DNA of 64,000 nt from an uncultured Gemmatimonadaceae bacterium (GCA_963740355.1 CAVUDW010000002.1:128001-192000); one strand, 5' to 3'; positions 28,208-47,318 are shown, counted from the first letter of the stretch. Translations and numbers: made by a program. The notes: generated by a model not told the origin, from the letters alone.

Positions 28208-29159
28208 ATGTCTATGCCCAACGTCGTGCACCCGTGGTCTACCAGCCCGGCATCGTTCATCACTCCCTTCCCGGATGTGATCGTGTCGTCGGCCGAACCC
28301 GAGGTCACGACCGACGTCGCCCCGATTGCCCAGGCGCTGTTCACGGCCGGCTACCAGTCGGCGGCAATCGCGCTGGCCGAAGCGAGTCCGGACGAGATAC
28401 TGCACGGCATCGCGGCCGGCTGGCGGATGATCGTCGCGGCTGATGCCGCGCTGGCCGAGCAGATCGGCCGCGGCGGTGGGCGTGCTGATTCCATCGCTGC
28501 CGATGCGAAAGGACGGTTCGCCACGGTTCGTGGTGCAGATCCATGACGCCGACACCGCAGTCGCCGCCATCGCGCAGGAACAGGGCGATAGCGGCGTGGA
28601 CGCGGAGATGCGGCTCTTCCTCGACGAAGCGCTGCGCGATGGGGACCGGTTTGTGGACGCATCGCCGAGCGCCGGATTTGCCGCGTTGAGTGCGGCGAGC
28701 GGCGCGGCGGTGACGAGCGTGATCGTGCTCTGCGAGGACGCTGAGCAGTGTGCGGCGATCGAGGCCAGCGCGCGCTGGAGTGATCTGTCGGCAAGCGTCA
28801 CTGCACGCGAAGGCGTCTCGCTGGACGCCGTGCCGTTCGGCGCGGCTGTCGAGGGTGCCTCGACTATTCTCCACGCCGGCAGTGCGGCGGCCGTGGCTCC
28901 GCTGCTGCGCACCGCGCGGGGCGCGTTGGAACGGAGAGAGATCGGCGCGGTGGCCTGGCGCTGTGGACGCGCAGACGAATCGGGCCGCGATGCGGAGAAT
29001 CTGCAGGTCGCGGCGGCGGTGCTCGGCGTGTTCGGCTTCATCCACTTCGCACTCGCGGAAGGGGCGAACGGGACCGAGCTCGTTCCAGCCGAGGCGATGG
29101 CGAGCAATGAGATGATCTTCTCGATCGAGCCGAGCTTCCTGGCGCGGTTCGCGTCATGA
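28208..29159 (+). pseudogene. FkbM-methyltransferase-like protein split by a one-base insertion near 28466 (possibly an assembly error)
   Basis: ORFs 28208-28546 and 28443-29159 fuse into 316 aa if GATCGGCC is read GATCGCC; 'FLDEALRDGDRFVDASPSAGF' resembles a degenerate FkbM motif. Confidence 0.55.
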
Positions 29160-31250
29160 CTGCTGTGTCGTTGCGTGTGGTGCCTCCGTCGCCTGCGACG
29201 GATGTGCACGATGGCGCGACTCAGTTGTTCACCGCGCTGGCGACGTCACAGTCGCCAGCGTTTGGCGATTCAGGACGCCTGTCGACCGCTGCGGAAATTG
29301 CCACCTCGGAGATCGAGGCGGCGTGGGGAAATGCGCGAGTGGTAAGCTTCGACGTGTTCGACACGCTGATCGTGCGGAAGGTCGCGGCGCCGCGTGATGT
29401 GTTCCTGCACCTTGCAACACCGTCGCCGTTCTCGTCATGGGGGATGGGTGCGCTCGAACTGGCGCAGCACAGGCAGGAGGCGGAAAACGAGGCCCGTCGA
29501 CGCGGCGTCGTCGCACGCGGAAGTGCGGAAGTCACGCTGCACGAGATTCATGCCGTGCTGGCGGAGCGACTGTTCCGCACCGAGACGGACGTGCCGGCCA
29601 TGGTGCAGGCCGAACGACTGGTGGAGCGCGCGCTCTGCGTCGCGCATCCGCACCTGCGGCGATTGTTCGATCGCGCGCAACGCGACGGCAAGACGGTCTG
29701 GTGCGTGAGCGACACGTATCACGAAGAGGTCTTTCTCCGCGAGCTGCTCGAATTCTGCGGCTTCGCGGTGACTGGGCTGCAGGTCGTGAGCTCCGCCGAT
29801 CTGCGAATGTCCAAAGGCGAAGGGAAGGTGCTACGTCGCCTCGCGACCGAGGCGAAGGTGTCGCCCTCCGATGTACTGCACATCGGTGATCATCCGCAAT
29901 CCGACGGAGCGATTCCGCTGGAGCAGGGCTTTCGCGCCGTCTGTCATCCCTGGGCGGCCAGCCAGCATTCGGATCGGCCCAGCATCGGCGCCGGGCGATT
30001 CAGTCGCGCTCGGCCTGGCCCAGATCGGCTCACGCGTGGTGGAACCGGCGTTCCCCTTCTGGTGGCGCTTCGGTTATTCCGTTGCTGGGCCTCTGCTGAG
30101 CGGCTTCGCATTGTGGTTGCACGATCGATTCATGGCCGATGGTGTGCAGCGCGCGTACTTCCTGCTGCGCGATGGCGAGATCATCCTCGATGTGTATCGC
30201 GCATTGCTGGGTGATCGCCCGGGGCCCAGCACCGCGCTGCTCGAGTCGTCACGTCGAGCCTTCATCCTGCCAGCGCTGGAGGCGGGAAACCCATCGGTGA
30301 CCGCACAACTGCTGGCGTGCGAAAATGCGCGTCCGGCGCGCGAGTTCCTCGAGCGGATCGGGCTCCGCGCGACTGACTTTGCCGCAGCCTTTCGCGCAGT
30401 TGGCCTGGAGTCGATCGACACGATCGTCGACCGCCGAGACAACACGGCCATGGCGAAGGTGGCCGCCTTGTTCGGGCGTATGGATGTGGTGAACGCGATG
30501 GTGTCGCGATCCCGGACCGAGCGCGCATTGCTGTGGAAGTTCCTCGCGCAGGAAGGGGTGTTGGCACCCGGTCATGTCGGGCTGGTCGACATCGGGTGGA
30601 ATGGCACGATCCAGAAGGCGCTGATGTCGGTGGCGAAGGTCGAGCAGACGCCGCTCGATCTCTCTGGGTACTACCTCGGCACACAGCCGGCCATTTCCGC
30701 GGACCTGAACGGGAGTGCCGCGAGCGGATACCTGTTCAACGCCGGCGCACCTTTCGAGCGGGCGCGGGCCGTGACGCAGCTGCAGCAGTTGGTGGAATTC
30801 ATCTGTACGACCACACGCGGCAGCCTGCGTGGCTTTCGCGCTGAGGGGAAGTCGGTCGTGCCGGTGCATAGCGCCGTGGATCATCCCGCGTCGCAGCACG
30901 AGGCGGTGGCGCAACTGCGCGACGGTGCTGTCGCGTACGCGCGCGGGTTGGCGCAGGAACGAAAGGTGTTCGGTGACGATCCGATCAGCGCTGACGCTGC
31001 GCTGCGACACCTGGCGCGGACCATCCAGCAGCCGACTGCTGAAGAAGCCGCAGCCATCGGCGACATCCAGCATGGCGAAGGGCTCGGGGCGGATCGTGTG
31101 CGATCCTTCGCCGCATTCAGCGACGGCGCGTTCACCGCGCAATCGCTGCTCGAGGATCATGCGCGGGCGTACTGGCCAGCCGGGCTGCTCGCGCGTCGCG
31201 AGCCCGCTGCACTGGCGCTACGCGCGCTGCTTTGGCTGCGAAGCGCGTAA
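29156..31250 (+). pseudogene. HAD-superfamily hydrolase of polysaccharide loci split by a one-base insertion near 29976 (possibly an assembly error)
   Basis: 'SFDVFDTL', 'VSDTY', 'LHIGDHPQSD' in frame 1; 'YFLLRDG', 'VDIGWNGTIQ' in frame 2; fusion gives 697 aa. Confidence 0.75.
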
Positions 31251-31251
31251 G

Positions 31252-33096
31252 GTGAAACTGCCCGTCGTGCTCCTGCCCTCCGGCGCGTCGAGCGGTGCGC
31301 GCGAGCGGACGCTTGCGTCGGTGTCGGCACAGAGCATCGATGTCGAGGTGGTGACGACAACCGAGGCATTGCTGCGTGGCTCCGGAGAATTCGTTGCGCT
31401 CGTCTTGTCCGGCACGGTGCTGGACGCCACGGCATGTGAACGGGCTGTCTGGTTCCTGGCGTCGCATCCGGCCGTGCCGTGTGTCACAGGCGCATCGGCT
31501 ACACCATCGGCCACCTCGGCGATGTTGGCAGCGGCGCTGCAGTTCGTGGTGATGCGCATGTCTGTCGCGCAGCGACTGCTCGACGCGGGTGACCAGCTGC
31601 AGGCCGCAACAGCGATCGCTCTCATCATCGGGTCGCGACGCGAGTCGGGACGGGGTGCGGGATGGGTGTCAGACCCCCTGATTCGCGCAAACGCGGATCC
31701 GGCGATCCTCGTACGAATTGAAGCCGAGGCGCATGTCGCCCTGCAGCAGCTCGCTCTCGATGACGCAGCGTTATTCGATCTTGGCGCCAGTGGAGTGCCG
31801 GTGGCGCCGCAGCAGGCGCTGACGAGTGTTGCGTGGCCAGCCATCGACGTTAAACGCGCGCCCACCGGCGGCATGCGGATTCTCGCACTGCTGCAGGGAT
31901 TTCCGATGGGTGGCTACACCGCGTTCAACGCTGAGTTGCTGCCCCGCCTGACCGCCTCAGGGCACGCGGTGACCACCTGCACGACGGAGTTCTTCCGCAC
32001 TGACTGGCGACTCGACCTCGTGCGCGATGCAGCTCCCGACATCCATCACGCTCACGCGGTGGTACCCTCGACGGCGGTCCCGTCGTACATCGATTGGCTG
32101 ATCACGTCGCGCGCGATCGATGTCGTGCTGCTCAGTCACAGCTATCTCGGCTTCCACGCTCTGCCATATCTCCGAGCACGTCACCCGACGGTTGCGTTCG
32201 TGGACTATGTGCACACCGATTGGTTCGAGAGCGCGATGTATGGCAGCTATGCTACGATGGCATCGCGGTTCGAGGGGCAACTGGATGCACAGCTGGCCAC
32301 CAGCGTCGCGCTGGCGTCGCAGCTGATCGACGCCGGTTGCGATGCGGCTGCCGTGCGTACCGCACATATCGGCATCGATACAGCGGCGTGGCGACATGCG
32401 GGGCCGCGACTCGAGGCGGTGCGCACGTCGCTGGGTGCCTCGAAGGACACGGTCGTGTTGCTGTTTTCTGGTCGCATCTCGCCGGAGAAACGGCCGGAGC
32501 TGGCGGTCGACGCGCTGGTGCAGTTGCGTGCCGAAGGGACGGATGCGCTGCTGGTATTCGCCGGGAGTGGCCAACTCCTGCAGGCCACTCACGAGCGCTC
32601 GGTTGCGCTCGGCGTGGAGTCGTCCTGCAAGTTCCTTGGTGAACTGGACGAGGCCACACTCCGTCACGTCTATGCGGCTGCGGACCTCTTCATCGCGCCA
32701 TCGGCGATAGAAGGGATTGCACGCTCGCTGTATGAAGCGATGGCGATGGGGTGCGTGCCGGTGGTCTCAGACGTCGGTGGCCAGCGCGAGCTGGTGATCG
32801 ATGGCACGGGCAGCCTGGTGAATGCGGCCTGTGCGACTGCCTCGCCGTATGTGGACGGTATTCGTCCCTGGCTCGCCCGCGACGCGAGAAGCCGCGCGAG
32901 CGCCGCAGCACGCGCACACATCGTGGCACACTTCGACAGTCACCGCACGGTTCAGAAGGTCTGCGACGCGCTGCGCCTTGGCATCACGCGGCGAGTCATT
33001 CGGCAGGAGACGCTGCCGGCGGCGATGGCTGAGGAGCTGGCGGTGATGGCGATCGAAGTGATGCGGCGCCACGTGCTCAAGATCGTGTCGCGGTAG
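31252..33096 (+). CDS. Glycosyltransferase, C-terminal GT4 domain with degenerate GT2-like N-terminus
   Basis: 'FSGRISPEKRP', 'EGIARSLYEAMAMG...SDVGGQRE'. Confidence 0.85.
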   Translation: MKLPVVLLPSGASSGARERTLASVSAQSIDVEVVTTTEALLRGSGEFVALVLSGTVLDATACERAVWFLASHPAVPCVTGASATPSATSAMLAAALQFVVMRMSVAQRLLDAGDQLQAATAIALIIGSRRESGRGAGWVSDPLIRANADPAILVRIEAEAHVALQQLALDDAALFDLGASGVPVAPQQALTSVAWPAIDVKRAPTGGMRILALLQGFPMGGYTAFNAELLPRLTASGHAVTTCTTEFFRTDWRLDLVRDAAPDIHHAHAVVPSTAVPSYIDWLITSRAIDVVLLSHSYLGFHALPYLRARHPTVAFVDYVHTDWFESAMYGSYATMASRFEGQLDAQLATSVALASQLIDAGCDAAAVRTAHIGIDTAAWRHAGPRLEAVRTSLGASKDTVVLLFSGRISPEKRPELAVDALVQLRAEGTDALLVFAGSGQLLQATHERSVALGVESSCKFLGELDEATLRHVYAAADLFIAPSAIEGIARSLYEAMAMGCVPVVSDVGGQRELVIDGTGSLVNAACATASPYVDGIRPWLARDARSRASAAARAHIVAHFDSHRTVQKVCDALRLGITRRVIRQETLPAAMAEELAVMAIEVMRRHVLKIVSR

Positions 33097-33108: not shown

Positions 33109-33224
33109 CGGCAGTCCATGCCGCCCGTTCGATCGCACTCGGCAGAGCATGCCGTTCGAGGGTAACGAGCGGATTTCGTAAACGCATGTCGCAGAAGGCT
33201 TTAGCGAACGGCATGGCCCGTGCT
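33109..33224 (+). promoter_or_regulatory. sigma54 promoter B with enhancer boxes and 25-bp box
   Basis: CGGC-N7-GCCG at 33109-33123 and 33140-33154; 25-bp box 33179-33203; CGGCATGGCCCGTGCT at 33209-33224. Confidence 0.75.
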
Positions 33225-33311
33225 TTAGGGGGCATGTGGCGCCATGCGTTCCACAGGTGTGCCTTCAGCGTTTCGCTCGACCTTTCTCACTTCGCAACAC
33301 CCGACCATCCC

Positions 33312-35216
33312 ATGTGCGGCATCGCAGGCATCGTGAACGTGCAGGGCACGCCCGTTTCGCCGGGTGTGCTCCGTGCGATGACGGATATCGTGCGACATCG
33401 TGGTCCGGACGGCGAAGGCCAGTGGATCAGGAACGGGGTGGGCTTCGGGCATCGTCGCCTCGCGATCGTCGACCTGTCGCCTGCCGGCGCGCAACCGATG
33501 CAGAGCAGCGACGGCGCGTATGTGATCACCTTCAATGGCGAGATCTACAACTGGCGGGAGTTGCGAACGGAGCTCGGCAAGCGAGGCGCGGTGTTCCGCT
33601 CACACAGCGACACCGAGGTGTTGCTGGAAGCCTACCGAGTCTGGGGGCCGAAGTGCCTCGAGAAGCTGAATGGCATGTTTGCATTCGCGATCTGGGATTC
33701 GCGCAACTCACGTGTCTTCCTGGCGCGTGACCGCTACGGCATCAAGCCCCTCTACTATCGCTGGGATGGCCAGACGCTGCTGTTCGGCTCCGAGATCAAG
33801 TCGATCCTGCAGCATCCCTCGGTCAGTGTGCGCGTCGATCAGGCCGCACTGGGCGAATACTTCTCGTTCCAGAACGTGTTCAGTGACCGCACGTTGTTCG
33901 ACGGCATCAAGCTGCTGCCGCGTGCGTCATCGATCACGTTGGAGCTCGGCCGGCCAGAGTCCTTCGACATCACGCGCTGGTGGGACTACCAGTTCGTGGA
34001 GGAGAAGGGAGTCAGCGAGGGAGAGTATCTCGAGGAACTGGACCGACTGTTTCAGCAGGCTGTGGAGCGCCAGGTGCAGGCGGATGTCGAGGTCGGCACG
34101 TACCTCAGCGGTGGTATCGACTCAGGTGCAGTCACCTGCATCACGGCACGGCGATTCCAGAACGTGAAGAGTTTCACGGCTGGCTTCGACCTGTCGTCGG
34201 CCTCCGGGCTCGAGATGGCGTTCGACGAGCGCGCCAAGGCCGAGATTCTTTCTGCTGCCTATCGTACCGAGCACTATCAAGTGGTGCTGAAGGCGGGCGA
34301 CATGGAGCGCATCCTGCCGGACCTGGTCTGGCACCTGGAGGACCTGCGTGTCGGTCAGAGTTATCCGAACTATTACATCTCCCGGCTGGCGTCGCGCTTC
34401 GTAAAGGTGGTGCTGGCTGGCACCGGTGGCGACGAGATCTTCGCCGGCTATCCGTGGCGCTACTATCGCGCGGTGAAAAACGACGACGCGTCGCAGTATC
34501 TCGACAAGTACTACGCATACTGGCAGCGACTGGTCCCCGAGCAGCATCGTGGTTCGTTCTTCCGCCCGTCGGTGCAACGCGCGATGGTGACGCACACGCC
34601 GGAAGCGGCGTTCCGCAGTGTGCTACGCCGGCGGTCGTTCCTCGCGATGACGCCGGATGACTACGTCAACCACTCGCTCTATTTCGAGCTGTCCACCTTC
34701 CTCAGCGGGCTGCTGGTGGTGGAGGACAAACTCTCGATGGCGCACGGGCTGGAGACGCGCGTGCCGTTCCTCGACAACGACCTGGTTGACTTCGCGCTGC
34801 GTGTGCCGGTGAAGTACAAGCTGAAGAACGTGGACAAGATCGTGCGCATCGACGAGAACACCCCAGGCTTGAAGCGCCAGAAGTACTTCGATGAAACGGG
34901 TGACGGAAAGTTGATCCTGCGCAAGGCGCTCGCGCGCTATGTACCGGCCGGATACGCGAATGGCCGCAAGCAAGGCTTCTCTGCGCCCGATGGCAGCTGG
35001 TTCCGTGGGCAGAGCATCGACTACATCCGGAAGCTGCTGCACGCGAAGGATGCGCGGATCTACGAGTTCCTCGATCCCGAGACGGTGCACACCGTGCTTG
35101 ATGAACACGTGTCAGGAACGACGAATCACCGCTTGGTGATCTGGTCGATGCTCTGCTTCGAGTGGTGGCTGCGCCGGTTCCGCGACGGCGAAGCGGTCGC
35201 GGCGAACGCTGCCTGA
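33312..35216 (+). CDS. asnB: Asparagine-synthase-family glutamine amidotransferase (glycan amidation type)
   Basis: N-terminal 'MCGI', 'HRGPD', 'NGEIYN', 'LSGGIDS', 'GGDEIFAGY', 'RVPFLD', 'KQGF'. Confidence 0.92.
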   Translation: MCGIAGIVNVQGTPVSPGVLRAMTDIVRHRGPDGEGQWIRNGVGFGHRRLAIVDLSPAGAQPMQSSDGAYVITFNGEIYNWRELRTELGKRGAVFRSHSDTEVLLEAYRVWGPKCLEKLNGMFAFAIWDSRNSRVFLARDRYGIKPLYYRWDGQTLLFGSEIKSILQHPSVSVRVDQAALGEYFSFQNVFSDRTLFDGIKLLPRASSITLELGRPESFDITRWWDYQFVEEKGVSEGEYLEELDRLFQQAVERQVQADVEVGTYLSGGIDSGAVTCITARRFQNVKSFTAGFDLSSASGLEMAFDERAKAEILSAAYRTEHYQVVLKAGDMERILPDLVWHLEDLRVGQSYPNYYISRLASRFVKVVLAGTGGDEIFAGYPWRYYRAVKNDDASQYLDKYYAYWQRLVPEQHRGSFFRPSVQRAMVTHTPEAAFRSVLRRRSFLAMTPDDYVNHSLYFELSTFLSGLLVVEDKLSMAHGLETRVPFLDNDLVDFALRVPVKYKLKNVDKIVRIDENTPGLKRQKYFDETGDGKLILRKALARYVPAGYANGRKQGFSAPDGSWFRGQSIDYIRKLLHAKDARIYEFLDPETVHTVLDEHVSGTTNHRLVIWSMLCFEWWLRRFRDGEAVAANAA

Positions 35217-35242: not shown

Positions 35243-36880
35243 TCAGGCGCGGGCGGTGATGGCTGCGTCGAGGGTACTCACGAGGTCCTGGCGCCCGCAG
35301 GCGATGAACATCGCGTTCATCTCATCGAGCGCTTCGTGGAAGGTGCGCGTTCCGCGGGCGTGAATGCTGCGCCGCGGTGCCTCGAGGTCGTCGGCAAGGG
35401 CGAGCGCGGCCGAGGCCGCGTCGGTCAGTCCGGCGGCGGTGAACACCGCCCAGCGCGCCCATTCGAGCTCGGCACGATGCATGTCCGGGAAGGTGGCAGC
35501 ATGCGACACCGCCTCATCGACACGTCCGAGCGCGAGCAGCGTGATCAGCCACATCGCCCACTCGATCGGATCAGGCTCGCGGCCACCGTGGGTGAGGATC
35601 ATCTCGATCGACGCCTTGAGGAAGAAGAGCGCGTCATTCGGCTTGCCGGTGTGCAGCAGGCAGGTGGCGAAGCCAAGTCGTGGCTCCGCCATGTACGGCG
35701 TGTAGGCCACACACTGTGCGAACTGTTCCATCGCCGAGGCAAACTCGCCACGATCAACCGCGTGCCATGCCGTGCGCAGCAGCGCTCGATCGGTCGAGGC
35801 GCTGTCGATGTGCACCTGCTGGTCGGGCGCGTGCTCCGCCACGATACGGAGATCGCCACACATCGTCGACTGCACGATACGCTGGCCAGGCTGCATTTGC
35901 TTGTGAAGCTGGTACCACTGCAGGATCTGCGGGCGTTGTTGGATGGTATGATGCGAGTGGACGAGATCGAAGCCGTTGCGCGTGATGCGCTGCATCTCGT
36001 CGGGATGCCTGAAGAGGTGGTCGACCACGTCACGCACATCACCTTCGTCGGCGAAGACACAGTTTTCCATGTGCCGGAACCCGAACTCGCGGAGGATCGG
36101 CGTCTCCTCAGTGAGCAGCAGGCTGGCCGACGCCGGGATCTCGAGGTGCTTATTGACCAGTGCCTTCACCATGCCGCCGCAGGTCGGCGTGATGTACGCC
36201 GAGTTGATCAAGCGACTATACGGCTCGTCGAAGAGTGCCTGTGATGAATACTTCGGCGAATAGCCGACATGCGGCACCACGACGGTCTGAAAGTGCTCCG
36301 ACACGGCGGCGCGGATTCGCTTGCGCCAGGCGTACTGTGCGATGTCGGTGTTCCCCATGAACAGGATGGGCAGCAGCTTCTGCTGGCCGTAGTCACGATA
36401 GATCGTGGCGTCGACGGCGAAGGGCCAGTAGAACAAATTGTCGGCGATTTCCGGCAGGTAGTCGCCGGCGTTCGACACGTACGTGAACCAGGTGTCGATA
36501 CCCCACCGCTCCATCTCGGCGTAGAACGTGGTGCGGGATGGACACATCGGGTCGGCCCGCATGAAGCCCAGTTTCGGGATTGCGGGGTGCGACGAGGTGT
36601 TGCTGATGCTGGTGTAGGGGCCGGCGTAGTTGTTGTTGCCACTTTCGAAGAGAGTCAGGTCCGGCTGGTGCAGGTCGCAGATCTCGCCGTAGTCGCAGTC
36701 GTTCTCGACGATGACGAGGTCGAACCATTCCGAGAGCCCAGTGACGAACAATCGCTCGAAGAGCCGCTGGTTGAACGGCGGGTACGAGGTCAGTGGCCAA
36801 CGGAAATACACCATCCGCGGCTTCGCGGATGGTGTATCGAGCGTCTGTGGATGCACGCAGTGCCGAATGGTGCTGATCAT
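35243..36880 (-). CDS. Glycosyltransferase (CgeB/Glyco_trans_1_2-like) with C-terminal TPR-like helices
   Basis: 'ILFMG', 'KHLEIPAS', 'RITRNGFDLVHSHHT'; TPR-like 'AEPRLGFATCLLHTGKPNDAL'. Confidence 0.7.
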   Translation of the reverse strand: MISTIRHCVHPQTLDTPSAKPRMVYFRWPLTSYPPFNQRLFERLFVTGLSEWFDLVIVENDCDYGEICDLHQPDLTLFESGNNNYAGPYTSISNTSSHPAIPKLGFMRADPMCPSRTTFYAEMERWGIDTWFTYVSNAGDYLPEIADNLFYWPFAVDATIYRDYGQQKLLPILFMGNTDIAQYAWRKRIRAAVSEHFQTVVVPHVGYSPKYSSQALFDEPYSRLINSAYITPTCGGMVKALVNKHLEIPASASLLLTEETPILREFGFRHMENCVFADEGDVRDVVDHLFRHPDEMQRITRNGFDLVHSHHTIQQRPQILQWYQLHKQMQPGQRIVQSTMCGDLRIVAEHAPDQQVHIDSASTDRALLRTAWHAVDRGEFASAMEQFAQCVAYTPYMAEPRLGFATCLLHTGKPNDALFFLKASIEMILTHGGREPDPIEWAMWLITLLALGRVDEAVSHAATFPDMHRAELEWARWAVFTAAGLTDAASAALALADDLEAPRRSIHARGTRTFHEALDEMNAMFIACGRQDLVSTLDAAITARA

Positions 36881-39006: not shown

Positions 39007-40170
39007 TCAGGCCCCGACCGTGGCGTAAACGTCGTGCAGCGCACCCGCCACCTCGCGCACATCGTCGTCCGGCATACCGGCATAGAGCGGAATCGCGATC
39101 GACAGCGACTCGGCCAGCAGTGACTGCGGACAGGTGCTTGCGTCGAGGGCGTAGCGGCCAGCGTAGTAGGTCGTGTGCGGCACGGAGTGCGTGCCCTGAC
39201 GCGTGCCGATGCCACGCTGCTCGAGCGCGGTCATGATCGCATTGCGCTGCTCGTGCAGGCCGAGGCGATTGGCTTCGGTGGGCGCTTCGGGCGCAAAGAG
39301 GCAGACGTAAGACTGATAGCTGTGACCGACGCCGTCCCGCTGTGCAGGCAGACGCAACCAGTCACAGTCGGCCAGCAGCGTATCGTAGAGCGCAGCGCAG
39401 TGCCGACGGCTGGCGAGAATGGTCTCTGCCTTGGCCATCTGCGTGCAGCCGAGCGCACCCTGAATGTCGGTGAGGCGATAGTTGAAGCCGCCGATCGGGA
39501 AATCGGGGAGCATGAAGGGTGCTGATGGACCACTGGCGCGCACGGCACCGTGATCGCGCAGTGATCGGCAGCGACTGTCGATTGCCGCGCTGGCGGTGGT
39601 GATCATTCCCCCTTCGCCGGTCGTGATCGCCTTCCGCGGATGGAAGGAGAAGCAGCCGGCATCGCCGAAGCCCCCGACGTGTGTGCCATGCAGCGTGGTG
39701 CCGAACCCGCAGGCCGCGTCCTCGATCACGCGCAGGTCGTGCTTGCGGGCGATCGCCATGATGCGATCCATGTCGGCCGCGAAGCCGAACTGGTGCACCG
39801 GGAGAATGGCACGTGTGCGCGAGGTGATGCTGGCTTCGATCAGCTCGGGGTCGATCGTGAAGGTGTCGAGATCGATGTCCACGAAGACCGGCACGGCACC
39901 GGCCTGTTCGACGCTGTTGGCGGTCGCGATCCAGGTGAACGCAGGCACCAGCACTTCGTCACCAGCACCGATGCCGACCGCCTTCAATGCCATGTGCAGC
40001 GCCGTGGTGCAGGAGCTGGTGGCAACGCTGAATGGCTGACCCGTGAAGGTCGAGAAGCGCGACTCGAACTGTCGCACGTACTCGCCCTGCACGACCCAGC
40101 CCTTCTTCAACGGTTCAACGACGGCAGCGAAGTCGCTGTCGTCGAAGAACGTCTTCGAGATCGGAATCAC
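39007..40170 (-). CDS. DegT/DnrJ/EryC1/StrS nucleotide-sugar aminotransferase
   Basis: 'SSCTTALH', 'IEDAAC', '[14 protein letters not shown]', '[10 protein letters not shown]'. Confidence 0.92.
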
Positions 40171-41132
40171 GCCGCGATGGCGCGTTGCAGCGCGTAGTAC
40201 TCGGCGGTGCGAAGGATGCCTTCCTCAAGGTCGACTTCAGCGGTGAAGCCAAGTACGTCGGTGGCCTTCTGGGCGGCAGGGATGCGCAGTTCGATGTCGG
40301 CGTAGTCGCGGCGAATGAACTTGATCTTCGACTTCGAGTTCAGCACCCGGACGACGGCGTTGGCGAGGCCGTAGATCGTGGTGACCGCAATCGCATTGCC
40401 GATATTGAACGATTCGCCAATGGCTTCCGGCTGCTCGAGGCACATCATGAGGGCGCGCGTCATGTCATCGACGTAGCACCAGGCGCGAATCTGCGTGCCG
40501 TTGCCGTGAATCTCGATGTCCTCGTTGCGGATCGCCTTCTGGATGAACTTCATGATCGCGCCCTCGCCGACCTGACCTGGGCCGTAGACATTGAACGGCC
40601 GCACGGTGACGGTGGGGACGCCGAACTCCTTGTGATAGGAGTGCGTGAGATGTTCCGCGGCCAGCTTGCCGACCGCATACACCCAGCGCGCCTCGCCCAC
40701 GGCGCCGATCTCGCACTTGTCGCCTTCGCCGGAGTTGTAGGCACGGGAACCGAACACTTCCGAGGTCGAGAAGTCGAGGAAGCGACGACAATCCTTCAGC
40801 GTGCGACAGGCCTCGAGCACGTTGGCCGTGCCGATGAGGTTGACGCGGAGCGTCTTGGTCGGGCTGATGATGACGGTGTCGATGCCCGCGATGGCGGCAG
40901 CGTGCACCACGTAGTTCGCGCCTTCGATGGCCTTCTCGACGGCGGCTGCGTCCATCACGTCGCCGCGGATGCGCTTCAGGTTCCGGTGGCCTGCGAACGG
41001 CTTATGCTGCAGCGAGTCGCGCGAGAAGTTGTCGAAGATCGTGACTTCGTTCTTCTCGACGTAGTGGCCAGCCAGCGTTGAGCCGATGAATCCGGCTCCG
41101 CCCGTGATGAAGATCCTGGCGCCTTCGATCAT
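40167..41132 (-). CDS. NAD-dependent nucleotide-sugar epimerase/dehydratase
   Basis: 'ITGGAGFIG', 'STSEVFG', 'YAVGK', 'RPFNVYGP'. Confidence 0.92.
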
Positions 41133-41273
41133 GTGGTGCTCCACCCGGTGTTGAAAGAGTTGGTGCACCCGCCCCGCTCGGGATCCCCACACATCTGGTG
41201 GTAGAGCCGAGGCGGGACGGATGCAGCACAACGGGCGTCGCGAGGACACCTGCGCTGCACAGAGCATCGGAAA

Positions 41274-41412
41274 AGCAGCAACCGTGCCGAACCGTAAAGC
41301 GTTGCCTCGCAATAGTTTAGCAAAATGGGCGGTGGTGCCGGCAGAGAAATATTTGCCGCTCGCGACCCGAATCGGCCGTTTGATGCCGACGGACACCCGG
41401 CAGAGTTGGCCG
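41274..41412 (-). promoter_or_regulatory. sigma54 promoter C with enhancer box and 25-bp box
   Basis: Minus strand CGGCACGGTTGCTGCT (GG at 41288/41287); 25-bp box 41295-41319; CGGC-N7-GCCG at 41398-41412, partial sites at 41374-41388 and 41344-41358. Confidence 0.72.
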
Positions 41413-41575
41413 ACCTGGGACTGCCTCTGCACACCCATCGCACACCCACTCAGCAGCCGGAAAAGACATCTGTTTAGTCGTGGCCAGTCGCGCCCGACAC
41501 TGGAGCCATGAACAGGTGTTCCGTCGCGGCCGTGACGGGCTGCCGTGGGTGGATCCAGTGTGGGGGAAAACGTCG

Positions 41576-42829
41576 ATGCGACTCGACCAGAAGTACCGTG
41601 TAGTGAGTCTCTGCGAGGATGATCGCGTGGATCGGCGCATCCTCGATGGCGCACGCATGTTGAGCGAAGAAGGCTGGCCTACGCTGGTGATTGCGGCGCC
41701 ACCACTGATCGACTTGCGCGACGAGGAGAGTTATCCCGACGTACCCATCTTTCGCATGCCGTCACAGTACGTGCCTGGCGGCGAGGTGCCGACTGGTACG
41801 CTGCCACACGAGGAGTTGATCAATTCACTGTTTCGGTGGAGTCGGCGGGTGACGGCGGCGGCCCTCGCCTTTCCCGCTGAGGTCTACATCGCAAACGATC
41901 TTCCGCAATTGGCGGCTGGAATCATCGCGGCGCGCACCTACGGCAGCACGTTGATCTACGACGCACACGAGTTCTTTCCCGCGCAGCCGTTTGTCAAGGA
42001 TCGCAGTGAGAAGCTCGAGACCATCGAACGCGACCTGATCCAGTACGCCCACGGCATCGTGACGGTCAACGACAGCATCGCCGACGTCATGACCATGCAC
42101 TACAAGTGCATGCGGCCGCACATCGTGCTCAATTGCCCGACGCGACGACACCAGAAGACGGCGATGGTCGATGACGGCCGGATGCGAAAGTTCCTCGGTA
42201 TCGCACCAAGCCAGCGCATCCTGCTCTATCAGGGCAATCTGACGGCCTTTCGCAATCTCGAGGAGATGATCGAGGGCATGACGATGGTGCAGTCCGATGA
42301 TGTGGTGCTTGCACTGATGGGCCGAGCCTCCGAATTCTCGGAAGGACTGCAGCGTCGTGCGTCGGAGCTTGGAGTGCTTGGACGTCGCGTGTTCTTCATT
42401 CCCGAGAAGTCGGCCGGCGAGTTGCTGGCGTGGACGGCGGGTGCCGATGCCGGGATCATTCCCTATCCGCACACCGACCTGAATACGCTCATGTGCACGC
42501 CGAACAAGCTCTACGAGTTCCTCGCGTCCGGACTGCCGATCCTTGCCTCGCATGGGACGGAACTGCGCCGCTTCGTCGGCGATCTGGGTGTCGGGCGGAA
42601 TGCGCATCTCCAGACGCCGCGCGACTTTGCGACAGCCATCGACGCCTTCATGGCCGGGCCACTGGACGTGTGGCGCGCACGCTCGATGGAGCTGTCGGCA
42701 CGATACACGTGGGAGACGGAAGGGCGCCTCTGGTTCGACATCATTCGGCAGGCGCAGGAAGTACACCGCGCCAAGCCGTGGCCGGCGCAGCAGGTTGCCG
42801 CTTCTACACTCGAGTTGGTGTCGGTCTGA
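41576..42829 (+). CDS. Glycosyltransferase family 4
   Basis: 'IYDAHE', 'LLYQG', '[13 protein letters not shown]'. Start codon approximate. Confidence 0.85.
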
Positions 42830-44118
42830 TGCACACCACGATCACACCGGAGCGCACGATGAAGAACGGCGCGACAGGCTCCACGCCAGCCACCGCTCGA
42901 GCAGATGCCACCTCCGCACCGTCGACGGTGCCCATCGCACTCGACTGGCAAATTGGGATCGGCACGAGCGCGGAGTTGATGGCACTGCACCTCACCACAC
43001 AGCTTCAGGGAACGCCGGGTGCCCAGGTCGTCCCGTTCATCGGTCCGACGCTGCACCCGGACAAGCTGGCGCCGACGCTACGAGCCCGGGTGATCCGTGC
43101 GTTCGACATCGCCGCGGCAGAAGGACCACGGCTGGTGCGCGAATCACGGGGACAGTCGCTGCCGATGATCGCGTTGCACCTGCTCGGCCGTGGGCTGGGT
43201 GGTTTGCCGACACCGCTTCCGCTGCCGCCGCGTCGCAGCATCGGCATCGTGCAGACGTGCGACACCGCGTTCGATGACGCGTCACGCACGCGCGCGAGTG
43301 TGTGCGACGCGGTCCTGGCCGGATCCACCTGGATGCGCGAGCGCCTGGTGGATGCTGGCATCGCGAAGGTCGGCGTGTATCCGGTTGGCGTCGACACGAC
43401 GCTGTTCACGCCGGCGCCGAAGGCAGGCCACCTGTCACAGCGCTTCGTAATCTTCTCCGGCGGTCGGCTGCATCACCACAAGGGACAGGACATCGTGTTG
43501 GCGGCGGTGCGAACCTTCCGGAAGCGCCACCCGGAAACGTTGCTCCTTACCACCTGGCAGACGCCTTGGCCGGAGGCGATTGGTGACCTGACGTCGGCTG
43601 GACATGCCAAGAGTTCTCTCGACTACTACGGTGGCAAACTCGATGTGGTGAAGTGGTGTGCCGACAATGGATTACCCGCAGGTTCGGTGGTGGACCTCGG
43701 TGCACTCGATCAGGCGGCGCTGGCGGTCGTGTTGCGCGAGGCGGATGTGGCCCTGTTCCCGAATCGCGCCGAGACCGATGCCAATCCGATGCTGCTGGAG
43801 TGTTTCGCAAGCGGGGTGCCGGTGATCGCGTCCGCCAATACGGGTCATCTGGACGTTGTCTCGGCAGAGTACTGCTATCCGTTGACGGAGCAGAACGCGG
43901 TCCGAAGTGCAGCCGGCGGCGCGAGCACAATTGGTTGGGGTGAGTCGTCGGTAGATGAGATCGTGGCGCACCTGGAGGCGGTGTACACACGAACCAGCGA
44001 GGCCCGCGCGCGTGCGACTGCTGCGGCCACCTTTGCGAAGTCCTTCGGCTGGCAGGTGCACGCACCGCGGCTGTTGGAGCTTGTCGCACCGCTGATCCGC
44101 GACATCCAGGCGAACTGA
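42829..44118 (+). CDS. Glycosyltransferase family 4
   Basis: 'IFSGGRLHHHKGQD', 'PNRAE...LECFASGVPVIASANTGH'. Confidence 0.82.
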   Translation: MHTTITPERTMKNGATGSTPATARADATSAPSTVPIALDWQIGIGTSAELMALHLTTQLQGTPGAQVVPFIGPTLHPDKLAPTLRARVIRAFDIAAAEGPRLVRESRGQSLPMIALHLLGRGLGGLPTPLPLPPRRSIGIVQTCDTAFDDASRTRASVCDAVLAGSTWMRERLVDAGIAKVGVYPVGVDTTLFTPAPKAGHLSQRFVIFSGGRLHHHKGQDIVLAAVRTFRKRHPETLLLTTWQTPWPEAIGDLTSAGHAKSSLDYYGGKLDVVKWCADNGLPAGSVVDLGALDQAALAVVLREADVALFPNRAETDANPMLLECFASGVPVIASANTGHLDVVSAEYCYPLTEQNAVRSAAGGASTIGWGESSVDEIVAHLEAVYTRTSEARARATAAATFAKSFGWQVHAPRLLELVAPLIRDIQAN

Positions 44119-44164: not shown

Positions 44165-45607
44165 TCAGGTGATGCTGCTGTTGACCTTCAGCGCCAGCGT
44201 GCGTGCCATTTCTGCGGCCTGCTTTCCGAGGCCGAGCGTCACGGCTAGCTGCGCGAAGCGATGTGCATCAGCCCACGCCTCCTCCCGGCCGAGCCGTTCC
44301 GCCATCAGGAGCGCCGAGATGGCATCGTGCTGGTGCGCCGGCAGGGAGTTCCACGGCACCTGTGGGAAGAGCAGCCGCTTGTCATAGCGCGCCCACATCT
44401 CGAGCACGATCCGGCGATGCGCGTCGGCGTAGGGATTGGTGCCACCGCCGAGTCCCATGTTGGCGCCGTGCCAGCGCCAGATGTAGCCGAGCCCGGGGTC
44501 GTGCTTGAACTTCGCACGCAACGCCAGGCGTGACCAGAGGTGGTAGTCATGCCCGCGCGGGAATCCCGCGTCATACCAGCCAGCACGTGCGTAGGCTCGC
44601 ATGCTGATGAGTGTACCGCCGTCCGTCATCACGTTGCGCTGGAAGAGCGTCGCCAGGAGTGCCTCGGGGCGATCGTACCAGTCCTCGCCGATGTTCTGAC
44701 TCACCGGATTGAGCGCGGCATCGCAGAGCAGCATGTCGCCGTGAATGACATCGGCATCCGGCACGCGCTCGAGCATCGTGACGCGGCTCGTCACGACTGA
44801 CGGCACCAGCAGGTCGTCGTCGCCGATCCAGATCACGAAGGGCGTGTCGATGGTCGCGAGCGCCTGATTGCGGTTGGCCGGCGCGCCACCGTGCTGGTTG
44901 GCGATCAGCCGCACGCCGTTCGTCGCATATCCCTTCACCACATCAACGCTACCGTCGGTGGACCCATCGTCCGTCACGATCACTCGGCAGTGCGGATAGT
45001 CCTGCGCGAGACAACTGACGATCGTCTCACGCAGAAATCCGGCGCGGTTGAACGACGGGATAATGAGCGAGACAGGTGGCGGCTCGAACGTGACGCGCGC
45101 ATCGGTTGCCGCCTCTACGACGGGCCTCGGATTGCGCTGAATACTTCCCGGCACGGCGCGTGTCGGTGTTTCGTGGGCCTGCAGCGCGAAGACGGTGTCC
45201 ACGAGCGCCGCAGCGTCGCGTACGCACCAGTCAGAGGGTCCGACCAGTGACGCGTGGGCGCTTCGAATGACGGGCAGGCCTGACGCCCGCACCACCTCGA
45301 CACAATGCGCGACGGCGCCATCGATCGGTCCGAGCACCACCACCACGCGGACACTCACCGGCATCGCCCAGGCGTCGAGACGGTCTCGGTCCACCGCATA
45401 CATCGCCACGCCGCTGGGCAGTGCGTCGTCTGACGTATCAGGGCCGAGCAGGACCGGCGCAAACTCCTCGCCGAAGCGACTGCCCCAGCCCAGCGATCCG
45501 ATGCACAACTCCACCAGCCAGGCGCGATCGTCGACACTCAGGCGCGGCCAGTCGGCGATGACGGCGACAGTGATTGCATCTGGCGCGGCCGACACATCAT
45601 GCAGCAT
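44165..45607 (-). CDS. Glycosyltransferase family 2 with N-terminal extension
   Basis: 'IIPSFNR', 'DDGSTD', 'GDDD', 'HDYHLW'. Confidence 0.85.
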   Translation of the reverse strand: MLHDVSAAPDAITVAVIADWPRLSVDDRAWLVELCIGSLGWGSRFGEEFAPVLLGPDTSDDALPSGVAMYAVDRDRLDAWAMPVSVRVVVVLGPIDGAVAHCVEVVRASGLPVIRSAHASLVGPSDWCVRDAAALVDTVFALQAHETPTRAVPGSIQRNPRPVVEAATDARVTFEPPPVSLIIPSFNRAGFLRETIVSCLAQDYPHCRVIVTDDGSTDGSVDVVKGYATNGVRLIANQHGGAPANRNQALATIDTPFVIWIGDDDLLVPSVVTSRVTMLERVPDADVIHGDMLLCDAALNPVSQNIGEDWYDRPEALLATLFQRNVMTDGGTLISMRAYARAGWYDAGFPRGHDYHLWSRLALRAKFKHDPGLGYIWRWHGANMGLGGGTNPYADAHRRIVLEMWARYDKRLLFPQVPWNSLPAHQHDAISALLMAERLGREEAWADAHRFAQLAVTLGLGKQAAEMARTLALKVNSSIT

Positions 45608-47318
45608 GCGCCCGTGCCTCCAGGTCGAGCGGGGCACGAGTGCCTTCGATGAACTGGCGGTGCCAGATCGTGAGGCTGACCAGCGCGCACAACTGCGAGA
45701 GCTGCGGCCATTCCTCGTAGCGCCAGGGGCCGGCGTTCATGCGTGCGCCAAACTCACGGGCGAGGCGCGGGCCATCGAAATACGGATTCTGTTGCCAGAA
45801 CGGGAGCATCATCGTGGCGCGGAGCAGCGGACCAAGCGAACCGTTTGCCCACTCGATCAGCGGCGCGTTGAAGCCGACCTTGCTGCGCCGGAGACGCACG
45901 CGTTCCGGCACCAGGTCGCGGATCGCATCGCGCAGGACACGCTTTGTGAATCCGCCACCGAGCTTGGCATCAGGAGGCAGTGCGCGCGCGAACGTCACCA
46001 GCCGCCAATCGAGCAGCGGCATCCGCGACTCGATCCCGTGCGCCATCGTGGCCCGATCAAAGTTGCGCAGGATGCCGGGCAGTACGTCACGCGTGATCTG
46101 CCCATCGAGGTACGCATTCAGTTCGCGACGCGGCACGCGCAGGTGCGGCGTGTACCCGCCGAGTACCTCGTCGCCGCCATGGCCGTCGAGCGTGACACGT
46201 ACACCAGTGCTGGAGATCGCACGATTGAGGAGCCAGACCGGTGTGGCCGCGATACCAGCCGCGGATTCCGATGACCAGATGCTCTCGAGTGCCGCATCGG
46301 TGGCCTGCGCCGCGTCGAAGGCGATGTAGTGCGCCTCTGCGCGGACATAGTCCGCCACGGCGCGTGCATGCGCTGTCTCGTCGAGTGCGCTCCCAGGTGC
46401 CGTGCTGACGAAGGCATGACGCCAGTCGCTGGCGGACCGCTGCAAGTCGCTGCTCGTGCCGGCGTGGAGTGAAGCCATCACGCCCGCGACGGCGCTGGAA
46501 TCGATACCGCCGCTGAGGCAGGTGCCGACAGGCACGTCGCTGCGCAAGCGGAGGCGCACCGCATCGAACAGCAGGTCGCGGAACTGTGCCACCTGATCGT
46601 CGTACCGCGCGGGTGCCGCGATCAGATGTGCATCAGGATTCCACCAGCGCGTGATGCCTCCCTTGCCGCCCGCATCCAGCTGTAGCAGATGGCCGACCGG
46701 GAGCTGTACGATGCCCGCGAGCAGCGTCTCCATCTCGGTGCCTTCGATGCGCCCCGCATCCTGCAGCGTGAGCCGGAAGATGCGTTCGTTGAGCGAAGGC
46801 GCAGCGTCAGCCAGCGTGAGGAATGCCTTCAGCTCGGACGCAAAGGCGAGGCGCTTTCCGGCTTGCAGGTAGAGTGGCTTCACGCCGAAGCGATCGCGGG
46901 CGAGGATGAACCGCCGCGCGGCAGGTTCCCAGGCAGCGATTGCGAACATGCCGTTGAACCGGTCCAGCGCCGACACCCCCCAGTGCAGCAATGCGGCCGC
47001 TACGACCTCGGTGTCACCAGTGCCGCGGAAGGCGTAGCCTGCCTGCTGCAGCTCGGCGCGCAGTTCGAGGAAGTTGTACACCTCGCCGTTGTAGGTGACG
47101 ACGATGGTGCGACCATCCGGTGCGCGCTGCGTGAGTGGGCAGCTGCCGGCATCCGAGGTATCGAGAATCGCAAGGCGGCGATGGCCAAGGCCGATTTCGC
47201 CGTCGACGAAACAGCCCGACCCATCGGGGCCGCGGTGGGTGAGCGCGTCGGTGAAGCGACGGAGTTCGTCGGGATCAACCGGCGCGCCACCGAAGGCGAA
47301 GCCTGCAATGCCACACAT
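45597..47318 (-). CDS. asnB: Second asparagine-synthase-family amidotransferase (shorter paralogue)
   Basis: 'MCGI', 'HRGPD', 'NGEVYN', 'LSGGIDS', 'GHGGDE', 'RMPLLD', 'KVGF'. Confidence 0.9.
   Translation of the reverse strand: MCGIAGFAFGGAPVDPDELRRFTDALTHRGPDGSGCFVDGEIGLGHRRLAILDTSDAGSCPLTQRAPDGRTIVVTYNGEVYNFLELRAELQQAGYAFRGTGDTEVVAAALLHWGVSALDRFNGMFAIAAWEPAARRFILARDRFGVKPLYLQAGKRLAFASELKAFLTLADAAPSLNERIFRLTLQDAGRIEGTEMETLLAGIVQLPVGHLLQLDAGGKGGITRWWNPDAHLIAAPARYDDQVAQFRDLLFDAVRLRLRSDVPVGTCLSGGIDSSAVAGVMASLHAGTSSDLQRSASDWRHAFVSTAPGSALDETAHARAVADYVRAEAHYIAFDAAQATDAALESIWSSESAAGIAATPVWLLNRAISSTGVRVTLDGHGGDEVLGGYTPHLRVPRRELNAYLDGQITRDVLPGILRNFDRATMAHGIESRMPLLDWRLVTFARALPPDAKLGGGFTKRVLRDAIRDLVPERVRLRRSKVGFNAPLIEWANGSLGPLLRATMMLPFWQQNPYFDGPRLAREFGARMNAGPWRYEEWPQLSQLCALVSLTIWHRQFIEGTRAPLDLEARAHAA

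Follow-up and report, generated by a model that had tools for sequence, protein, structure and literature searches.

A probable flagellar glycosylation island with a recurrent ribofuranosyltransferase core in an uncultured Gemmatimonadaceae bacterium

A cluster of 13 genes between motAB and csrA/flgK in an uncultured Gemmatimonadaceae bacterium (GCA_963740355.1) is probably a flagellar glycosylation island, the soluble cytoplasmic enzymes of which would build an O-linked oligosaccharide on flagellin before its export. The cluster lies in a stretch of 64,000 nucleotides (nt) (CAVUDW010000002.1:128001-192000, here G000:C2:128001-192000), referred to as the window, from whose first letter all plain coordinates are counted. 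Judged from sequence, the flagellar reading is well supported by the position of the island, by the occurrence of its genes in two flagellar contexts, by promoters shared with flagellar operons and by the absence of export genes from the island and its flanks; flagellin as the target, the order of the sugars, the methylation of ribose, the group that is amidated and activity in this strain are inferred. The island appears to have two layers, a recurrent core composed of orfX, a ribofuranosyltransferase and a family 4 glycosyltransferase (GT4), which would be driven by sigma-54, and a species-specific part, here a five-gene amino-sugar cassette together with two further GT4 genes, a family 2 glycosyltransferase and both AsnB-type amidotransferases. 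A first-pass annotation had proposed a cytoplasmic pathway that decorates flagellin or hook proteins with an amidated amino-sugar glycan free of nonulosonic acids. The soluble, flagellum-tied and non-nonulosonate character of this pathway is upheld by synteny, by sigma-54 motifs and by the absence of export, NeuB and Maf genes, while the amidated-uronic chemistry and the choice between flagellin and hook as the target stand as proposals.

Gene content and position of the island

In the source genome (5.45 Mb, 5 contigs, 94.5% complete), genes were called by picking open reading frames (ORFs) guided by the G+C content of third codon positions (GC3), followed by Pfam and NCBIfam scans. Because the longest-ORF coordinates overlap often, starts were chosen by domain starts, neighbouring stops and relatives. 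Between motB/motA and csrA/flgK, in a window of 62-69% G+C, lie 13 island genes and one small hypothetical gene, arranged in four transcription blocks. The number of 13 and the gene families agree with the first-pass annotation, which had listed five glycosyltransferases, two AsnB-type amidotransferases and one each of a short-chain dehydrogenase/reductase (SDR), a DegT aminotransferase, a FemAB-like protein, a radical S-adenosylmethionine (SAM) enzyme, a HAD protein and a methyltransferase-like protein. The genes and their boundaries, with tetratricopeptide repeat abbreviated as TPR, amino acids as aa and nucleoside diphosphate as NDP, are as follows.

25489..27185, minus strand: motB and motA, boundary (PF13677, PF00691; PF20560, PF01618)
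27294-28031, plus strand: small hypothetical gene, 245 aa, no family assignment
28208-29159, plus strand: orfX, block D, predicted methyltransferase fold, ORFs 28208-28546 and 28443-29159
29156-31250, plus strand: predicted bipartite ribofuranosyltransferase, block D, ORFs 29156-30214 and 29871-31250
31252-33096, plus strand: GT4 of retaining type with N-terminal extension, block D (PF00534, PF13692, PF13439)
33312-35216, plus strand: AsnB-1, block D, after a 216-nt gap (PF00733, PF13522, PF13537)
35243-36880, minus strand: CgeB/YkvP-like glycosyltransferase with C-terminal TPR (CgeB-TPR), last gene of block A (PF13524 and PF14559)
36877-37893, minus strand: radical SAM enzyme with short SPASM/twitch-like C-terminal domain, block A (PF04055 and PF13186)
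37890-39005, minus strand: FemAB-like (Acetyltransf_6) transferase, block A (PF13480)
39007-40170, minus strand: DegT/PseC-like sugar aminotransferase, block A (PF01041, E 7e-107)
40167-41132, minus strand: SDR resembling NDP-hexose 4,6-dehydratases, first gene of block A, start ATG at 41132 (PF01370, PF16363)
41516-42829, plus strand: GT4, block B, start at 41516 or 41576 (PF13692, PF13579, PF00534)
42829-44118, plus strand: GT4, block B, start overlapping the preceding stop (PF00534, PF13692)
44165-45607, minus strand: family 2 glycosyltransferase (GT2) with ~175-aa N-terminal extension, block C, GGAGG before the ATG at 45607 (PF00535, E 1.5e-23)
45597-47318, minus strand: AsnB-2, block C, 40 nt downstream of csrA (PF00733, PF13537)
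47359-47622, minus strand: csrA, boundary (PF02599)
47693-49090, minus strand: flgK, boundary (TIGR02492, 355 bits against a cut-off of 171)

The five genes of block A overlap at their stops and starts, and block C is co-directional with flgN-flgK-csrA, continuing that gene run. The small hypothetical gene at 27294-28031 is the divergent partner of motA at every locus that has it, whatever the orientation of the island, and its product has so far been found only in Gemmatimonadota clusters. Since it stays with motA when the island is rearranged and has no match in fliC-type loci, it is assigned to the motAB neighbourhood rather than to the island.

The island is located inside a flagellar and chemotaxis cluster of ~80 kb, which extends from motAB to the che genes (to C2:232 kb). 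Beyond flgK come flgN, flgI, flgH, flgA, flgG, flgF, a Fic-domain gene, a flhF-like gene, flhA, fliQ, flhB, fliR and fliP, and outside the window fliN, fliM, fliL, flgE, flgD, fliI, fliH, fliG, fliF, fliE, flgC and flgB. These are followed by flgL-fliW, three paralogous TPR proteins, the sole flagellin gene fliC, and fliD, fliS, flgM and che genes, so that fliC itself is outside the window, 37 kb from the island.

Occurrence at two flagellar positions

Synteny was compared among 7 genomes of the same genus whose locus was retrieved, among 32 genome loci carrying relatives of the ribofuranosyltransferase, and in an even sample of 301 genomes of the phylum; FlgK was matched in 17 of the 18 same-genus genomes sampled. 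Within the genus, all 7 genomes have orfX and the ribofuranosyltransferase in the interval from motA to csrA, and 6 of them also have the core GT4. Core identities are mostly 50-71%, falling to ~33-41% in G010 and to 33% for orfX in G014. The island is 9.8-17.6 kb long in these relatives, compared with 20.2 kb here, and its remaining parts include AsnB-glycosyltransferase fusions of ~1000 aa, methyltransferases, nucleotidyltransferases, a GFO/IDH/MocA oxidoreductase, a hexapeptide acyltransferase and multi-domain glycosyltransferases of 970-1220 aa. The comparison across relatives that the first-pass annotation had proposed thus reveals a conserved locus filled with different variable parts in 7/7 genomes.

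A second position was found in other genera of the Gemmatimonadaceae. In G165, an SDR-AsnB-DegT group and, further on, an orfX-ribofuranosyltransferase-GT4-AsnB group are located between flgL-fliW and a TPR glycosyltransferase, which is followed by fliC-fliD-fliS. In G133, an island of ~28 kb occupies the flgL-fliW/fliC position and contains homologues of AsnB-2 (50% identical) and AsnB-1 (80%), adjacent FemAB-like and DegT genes (30% and 56%), an SDR, a CgeB-like enzyme of large size and further glycosyltransferases. The 32 ribofuranosyltransferase loci divide into 13 of the motAB type, 7 with flgL/fliW, a TPR glycosyltransferase and/or fliC, 3 that are too short to be assigned and 9 from other phyla.

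Promoter motifs shared with flagellar operons

In all nine aligned genomes of the genus (9/9), the region upstream of orfX contains GTTTACG-N4-GGCAY-N5-GTGCTTTGGG, with invariant GGCA and TGCTTT cores and a GG-N10-GC spacing equal to that of sigma-54 promoters. Three such motifs lie in the island.

28149..28164, plus strand: sigma-54-type motif GGCAT-N6-TGCTT, 43 nt upstream of orfX
33210..33225, plus strand: sigma-54-type motif, exact match, intergenic, 87 nt upstream of AsnB-1
41273..41288, minus strand: sigma-54-type motif, exact match, intergenic, 141 nt upstream of the SDR gene

The exact core GGCAY-N6-TGCTT has 20 matches in the 5.45-Mb genome, six of which fall in C2:150-232 kb, against 0.3 under a uniform spread. 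These six precede orfX, AsnB-1, the block-A SDR gene, fliQ, fliL and flgB, and all are intergenic and on the correct strand; among the other 14, five have no downstream ORF and at least three are inside genes. As the motif was derived from the island, only the matches before flagellar operons count as independent. The motif is also found before orfX in L056, L058 and L064, before SDR genes in G009 and G133, and before other island genes in G014 and G010. Moreover, rpoN is present in the genome, and a sigma-54 activator fragment adjoins the flagellar genes. Only the exact motif is informative, because a loose sigma-54 consensus allowing 2 mismatches gave 33 matches against 32 expected, which is chance. 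A generic scan for sigma-70 promoters and terminators was below chance, and no match to a sigma-28-like pattern was obtained.

Absence of export and nonulosonate functions

Pfam searches of C2:108-232 kb, covering the island with ~48 kb upstream and ~57 kb downstream, returned no family of export proteins, flippases, polymerases, ABC exporters or initiating phosphoglycosyltransferases. A Kyte-Doolittle scan of the 13 products, crude as it is, gave no convincing transmembrane segment, the only signals, weak ones, being in orfX and in the stretch by which the GT2 ORF extends upstream. The earlier statement that flippase, polymerase and export genes are missing is in keeping with both results. 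It had likewise recorded neither NeuB nor Maf, and genome-wide searches agree: in this 94.5%-complete genome the single match to NeuB (PF03102) is a DAHP synthase, and Maf (PF01973, MptE-like) has no match, although the control search for the latter matched only 4 archaeal genomes. A pathway to pseudaminic or legionaminic acid was considered and set aside, as the sole PF03102 match is the DAHP synthase.

A bipartite ribofuranosyltransferase in the core

The region 29156-31250 is predicted from its sequence to encode one bipartite ribofuranosyltransferase of the type dependent on phosphoribosyl pyrophosphate (PRPP), for which PRPP use and dephosphorylation are expected by homology. Homologues of its second ORF (29871-31250) are mostly ~696 aa long and have a HAD domain at their start, so that the HAD ORF and the next ORF form one gene. 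In tblastn, two relatives of ~696 aa align to the window in two frames, switching at 29979-29995, and DNA alignment with three relatives shows one C too many in a CCC run at about 29980, within the segment that links the catalytic domains. When 37 family members were combined into a profile, it matched the PDB entry 7shg_A, 'Ribofuranosyl transferase', with E 5.5e-53, profile positions 42-583 aligning to chain residues 15-568 across both domains, and the Bcs3 capsule polymerase with E 1.2e-39. The order of the domains is a HAD phosphatase half followed by a glycan phosphoribosyltransferase half. The 'HAD protein' of the first-pass annotation is therefore not a stand-alone gene; the 696-aa relatives and the 7SHG profile match identify it as half of the ribofuranosyltransferase.

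The local motifs SFDVFDT, SDT, HIGD..SD, LLRDGE and DIGWNGTIQ are intact and correspond to invariant columns of the family alignment, and apart from the frameshift there are no further stops. In this assembly the two domains do not lie on one polypeptide, being split at ~29980, which may be an assembly error. When independent public contigs were used to check the frameshifts, the site at 28477 in orfX was covered and that at 29980 was bridged by none. Enzymes of this kind, according to PMC11231755, combine a pair of catalytic domains, namely a transferase of ribofuranose-5-phosphate that depends on PRPP and a phosphatase whose action releases the product so that the chain can be extended; the enzymology of PRPP use and dephosphorylation is described there for the Klebsiella O4/O7 enzymes.

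The family also occurs outside flagellar loci. On contigs labelled Acetobacteraceae, Ktedonobacteraceae and Acidobacteriaceae (L067, L069 and L070), a ribofuranosyltransferase 32-36% identical to the local one adjoins a gene for a protein of 1140-1200 aa with CarboxypepD_reg and outer-membrane barrel domains; in L070 a homologue of the TPR glycosyltransferase adjoins it as well, and the three contigs show no flagellar genes within reach. The closest relatives of the local enzyme (94% identical over 269 aa) and of the GT4 (85%) lie at L062 868-2215, on a contig labelled Cytophagales, which is probably mis-binned Gemmatimonadaceae.

orfX and the core GT4

The product of orfX appears to fold as a class-I methyltransferase. 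In relatives it is a single ORF of ~305-335 aa, and here it is divided between two overlapping frames by an apparent one-base frameshift, the split lying between 28443 and 28546. One base at 28477 is absent from a 188-nt public contig that is 95% identical. No Pfam or NCBIfam match was obtained even at E 1, PF05050 (FkbM) and all methyltransferase hidden Markov models (HMMs) included, and the PDB sequence search with the orfX profile gave no match. The fold is taken from the G001 orthologue rather than from the split local copy: its AlphaFold model, made with 19 sequences, has a predicted local distance difference test (pLDDT) score of 83 and a predicted TM-score (pTM) of 0.78, and the PDB matches listed by Foldseek are all class-I SAM methyltransferases, the best at E 5e-7 and with target-normalised TM-scores of at most 0.61. 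The glycine loop reads D-x-x-P-G-x-G-F. The earlier label 'FkbM-like' thus loses its family name, for want of an FkbM or other Pfam match, and keeps its methyltransferase sense through the fold of the orthologue. In L056, a 945-aa ORF fuses orfX (residues 21-239) to the ribofuranosyltransferase (255-939), as confirmed by BLASTP, and L061 has a similar ORF of 939 aa, judged by ORF span only.

The third gene of the core operon, the GT4 at 31252-33096, carries an N-terminal extension of ~220 aa, and its profile matches only GT4 enzymes in the PDB, only through its C-terminal half. Homologues that are 50-63% identical follow the ribofuranosyltransferase in the 6 same-genus genomes mentioned above and in G165.

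The AsnB pair and the species-specific part

Both AsnB proteins are, by sequence, members of the glutamine-dependent asparagine-synthase family with the N-terminal Cys nucleophile present, a family name that does not fix the substrate. AsnB-1 has 634 aa counted from MCGI, scores 462 bits against the TIGR01536 cut-off of 267, and has copies 84-88% identical in G009, G001 and L055. AsnB-2 also begins with MCGI and scores 363 bits against the same cut-off; a homologue 50% identical lies beside a TPR glycosyltransferase in G133. In the Pfam scan, no sugar 6-dehydrogenase, the enzyme that forms uronic acids, was found within the island, and amidation of uronic acids of the WbpS type was set aside on this ground as the role of the AsnB proteins. 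Two loci of the same genus, L026 2080-5079 and L031 15683-18673, encode proteins of ~1000 aa in which a complete AsnB is fused to a CgeB-like family 1 glycosyltransferase (GT1) domain; such fusions point to amidation and glycosyl transfer on the same intermediate.

The genes for amino-sugar formation, which the first-pass annotation had not separated from the rest, belong to a species-specific cassette and not to the conserved part. The five-gene block A looks like an inserted cassette, because the L055 counterpart of the first block-B GT4, 82% identical, directly follows AsnB-1 and because the G+C content, 0.65-0.67 in the flanks, falls to 0.606 at 36001-38000, where the radical SAM and CgeB-TPR genes lie; this fall would agree with a recent acquisition. 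The CgeB-TPR gene was matched in none of 40 relatives, and single-protein scans of genome and metagenome contigs returned no relative; an alignment query retrieved only distant loci (<=43%) of non-flagellar character, often with adjoining SDR and DegT genes. The best NCBIfam match of the DegT protein is PseC (283 bits, under the cut-off of 423), and the SDR scores 164 bits with TIGR01181, under the cut-off of 365.

The FemAB-like protein scores 31.9 bits with PF13480, against a cut-off of 22, and 54.8 with TIGR03019, against 260. Its 30% identical homologue in G133, which adjoins DegT in the fliC-linked island, also matches PF02388 (FemAB). PDB sequence searches with the FemAB-like and CgeB-TPR proteins gave no match. 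In the radical SAM enzyme the CxxxCxxC motif occupies residues 25/29/32, and the C-terminal Cys are only four in number, for which reason its second domain is called twitch-like. Weak PDB matches were obtained to SkfB and BtrN (the latter at E 3.6e-4 over ~100 residues), and the best NCBIfam matches are peptide- and cofactor-maturase families, all below cut-off. A protein atlas upheld the radical SAM/SPASM call and otherwise returned 'hypothetical, Gemmatimonadota'. BtrN, a twitch radical SAM dehydrogenase of aminoglycoside biosynthesis, shares with the local enzyme the radical SAM core, a short, Cys-poor auxiliary-cluster domain and a setting among amino-sugar genes, whereas the sequence match is very weak.

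TPR glycosyltransferases beside fliC

Between flgL-fliW and fliC, outside the island and overlooked by the first-pass annotation, lie three tandem paralogues, 30-33% mutually identical, that combine TPR with a GT-B part (L004 2581-6832, corresponding to G000:C2:214581-218832, minus strand); other genera have one or two such enzymes beside fliC. In Pfam they give TPR and a weak C-terminal GT9 match (PF01075). The AlphaFold2 model of one paralogue (pLDDT 83, pTM 0.81) consists of a 12-helix TPR superhelix followed by two Rossmann-like halves, and a fold search places SPINDLY and OGT (GT41) first, with E 4e-12 to 1e-8, the TM-scores being low, as the matches extend over both domains. In PDB sequence searches, the glycosyltransferase domain had no match and the whole-enzyme profile matched only TPR proteins. 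These proteins are regarded as putative glycosyltransferases, OGT/SPINDLY-like in fold, that probably recognise flagellin.

Their glycosyltransferase domain (E <=1e-10) is present in 34 of the 301 phylum genomes, 32 of which are flagellin-positive (the exceptions being G141 and G160). By hand count, in 25 of the 34 the domain is matched no more than 3 kb from the best flagellin match, on the same contig; these counts are not independent because the genomes are related. FliC itself has 257 aa, with 33-43% Ser+Thr over residues 91-180, a region that varies between species; its Ser/Thr-rich centre is, as a sequence, compatible with the carriage of glycans.

The flagellin glycosyltransferase FlmG of Caulobacter crescentus and Brevundimonas subvibrioides has a TPR part that binds flagellin, as stated in bioRxiv 10.1101/2022.03.25.485807. 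The fliC-adjacent enzymes share with FlmG the layout of N-terminal TPR and C-terminal GT-B, a likeness of architecture. They differ in giving a weak GT9 Pfam match and GT41-first fold matches and in lying outside the island. In the same source, FlmG is described as transferring pseudaminic or legionaminic acid, whereas the PF03102 search left this genome without a synthase for either. None of the 120 listed homologues of the fliC-adjacent enzyme bears the name FlmG.

Proposed working of the pathway

In the proposed scheme, a TPR glycosyltransferase encoded beside fliC would start the chain on the Ser/Thr-rich middle of flagellin, and the core GT4 and the ribofuranosyltransferase would lengthen it. 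The latter would take ribofuranose-5-phosphate from PRPP, place it on a sugar acceptor and afterwards strip the phosphate, and orfX would perhaps methylate the ribose. In parallel, block A may convert an NDP-hexose through a 4-keto-6-deoxy intermediate to a 4-amino sugar (4-amino-4,6-dideoxyhexose), the amine of which the FemAB-like enzyme may acylate or aminoacylate; the radical SAM enzyme may alter the amino sugar further, and the CgeB-TPR enzyme would transfer the finished product. The AsnB enzymes may amidate a carboxylate, perhaps that of an attached amino acid, by analogy with peptidoglycan, the peptides of which are amidated by enzymes of the AsnB family.

Extended to flagellated Gemmatimonadaceae as a group, the proposal becomes more specific and more tentative, and in this full form it would more readily be wrong than right. 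It holds that their flagellin may carry an O-glycan started by an OGT/SPINDLY-like enzyme in the absence of nonulosonic acid, with an inner part containing PRPP-derived ribofuranose, possibly O-methylated, and a species-specific end of 4-amino-4,6-dideoxyhexose that is aminoacylated, amidated and altered by a radical SAM enzyme, all under flagellar sigma-54 control.

Alternative explanations

Several observations weigh against a flagellin glycosylation island. Two core genes out of three carry frameshifts in the assembly, and if these are real the core may not function here. Among the island's own proteins there is no match to a proven flagellin glycosyltransferase family, and in literature searched mostly without subscription journals, no published evidence was found for flagellin glycosylation in any Gemmatimonadota. 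All nine ribofuranosyltransferase loci from other phyla (9/9) have no flagellar structural gene within 10 kb, and three of them (two Planctomycetota, one Acidobacteriaceae) have an adjoining homologue of the TPR glycosyltransferase. Within the phylum sample the C-domain of the ribofuranosyltransferase occurs in 4/301 genomes and flagellin in 78/301, which means that this enzyme is not needed for flagella in general. In addition, sigma-54 promoters are not exclusive to flagellar genes, and the motif came from the island itself, though its flagellar matches were found afterwards. The CgeB-TPR family is widespread (cyanobacteria, Bacteroidota, actinobacteria) and common in non-flagellated bacteria, with distant relatives in non-flagellar loci, and the sub-threshold NCBIfam matches of AsnB, the FemAB-like protein and GT4 are XrtA/PEP-CTERM exopolysaccharide families.

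The last two of these points would also be expected if the genes made a non-flagellar glycan, such as an exopolysaccharide, a side chain of lipopolysaccharide or the sugars of another glycoprotein, and had settled in a recombination-prone gap with export encoded elsewhere. The CgeB-TPR relatives belong to non-flagellated phyla and to non-flagellar amino-sugar loci, and the ribofuranosyltransferase stands beside an outer-membrane barrel gene instead of flagellar genes on the Acidobacteriaceae-, Acetobacteraceae- and Ktedonobacteraceae-labelled contigs; the solved relatives 7shg_A and Bcs3 and the Klebsiella O4/O7 enzymes described in PMC11231755 work on capsule or O-antigens. XrtA/PEP-CTERM loci bring together the same three families (TIGR03108 amidotransferase, TIGR03019 FemAB-like, TIGR03088 GT4), but the local scores are far under the cut-offs (450 vs 817, 54.8 vs 260 and 73.6 vs 409, respectively) and no export gene is nearby, exosortase not having been searched for. 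This explanation is unlikely given that the island and the ~48 kb upstream and ~57 kb downstream of it contain no phosphoglycosyltransferase, flippase, polymerase or ABC exporter, that these genes are found at either of two flagellar positions, depending on the genus, and that three island operons carry the motif of the fliL, flgB and fliQ promoters. A flagellar glycan on a target other than flagellin, namely FlgK, FlgL, FliD, the hook or a further substrate of flagellar export, would fit the abutment of the island on flgK-csrA in this genus, the co-directionality of AsnB-2 and GT2 with flgN-flgK-csrA, where the genes are 22 and 40 nt apart, and the distance of 37 kb to fliC, which lies beyond the window. 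It is nevertheless very unlikely, since homologous genes stand directly beside fliC in other genera, the TPR glycosyltransferase family lies within 3 kb of a flagellin gene in 25/34 genomes, and the centre of FliC is Ser/Thr-rich and variable.

It is also conceivable that the frameshifts of orfX and the ribofuranosyltransferase are real, so that the core pathway is decaying in this strain and the species-specific cassette alone is active, if anything is. Such decay would accord with shifts of a single base in both of these neighbouring core genes, with the base at 28477 that is missing from the 95%-identical public contig, and with an IS3-type transposase by motB in this genome only; it is nonetheless quite unlikely. 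The two genes have no other stops, the family motifs are intact in both halves of the ribofuranosyltransferase, and the other 11 island genes are open. The shift at 29980 falls in the linker between catalytic domains and adds one C to a CCC run in a genome of only 5 contigs, a pattern suggestive of homopolymer assembly error. A flagellar glycosylation island acting on flagellin is thus retained as the probable reading.

Comparison with known systems and implications

Knowledge of flagellin glycosylation is most advanced for nonulosonic acids and a small number of deoxy-amino sugars, in Proteobacteria, Campylobacterota and Firmicutes, and flagellin glycosylation islands are known in Pseudomonas aeruginosa/syringae, Campylobacter, Aeromonas and Clostridioides. 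The present locus resembles those islands in having soluble sugar-nucleotide enzymes and glycosyltransferases within a flagellar cluster, at a fixed position that is variable among relatives, with no lipid-carrier or export genes. It differs in belonging to the phylum Gemmatimonadota, in having neither a nonulosonate pathway nor Maf, and in its core of a PRPP-type ribofuranosyltransferase and a methyltransferase-like partner, with AsnB, FemAB-like and radical SAM enzymes present. The order of HAD phosphatase and glycan phosphoribosyltransferase is the same as in 7SHG, in Bcs3 of Haemophilus influenzae type b and in ORF5/ORF7 of Klebsiella O4/O7. Bcs3 and the Klebsiella enzymes described in PMC11231755 act on capsules or O-antigens exported by ABC transporters, whereas the genes here lie in flagellar loci with no transporter. 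Unlike in the solved ribofuranosyltransferases, a methyltransferase-fold gene precedes the enzyme (in L056 the two are fused, as they are in L061 to judge by ORF span), and the local copy is split by a frameshift in the assembly.

No publication was found, in literature again mostly outside subscription journals, that joins flagellin, an O-linked glycan and ribofuranose, or flagellin glycosylation and asparagine synthase/synthetase; among papers naming flagellin glycosylation, ribose and glycan, none is, by title, on ribose attached to flagellin. If the proposal is true, it would provide the first role of the glycan phosphoribosyltransferase family in protein glycosylation and the first pentofuranose on flagellin, as far as the literature searched shows. 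The locus would extend flagellin glycosylation to a little-studied phylum of soil and freshwater and would put a PRPP-dependent ribose-adding enzyme, so far described for capsules and O-antigens, in a protein-glycosylation setting. Moreover, it would tie OGT/SPINDLY-like TPR glycosyltransferases to flagellin in an organism in which no synthase for pseudaminic or legionaminic acid was detected by the PF03102 search. A recurrent core and a swappable cassette, each with a sigma-54 promoter, offer a simple and testable model for the diversity of flagellar surfaces, and the enzymes could serve the glyco-engineering of proteins with ribofuranose.

Other features of the region

An IS3-type transposase of two ORFs (rve, rve_3) lies at 24083-25257 on the plus strand, between an EAL/HDOD gene and motB. 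It is unmatched near motB in G009, G016, G017, G001 and G010, where the EAL/HDOD gene lies near motB, and the contig of G004 ends at motB. A Fic/DOC-domain protein of 524 aa is encoded at 54143-55717 (plus strand) between flgF and the flhF-like gene and flhA, within the flagellar cluster but on the opposite strand. Finally, flgK-flgL-fliW-csrA form a unit in many bacteria, one that here the island and the remaining cluster genes keep apart: csrA (47359-47622) directly follows flgK, yet fliW stands with flgL ~37 kb off (L004 1096-2438).

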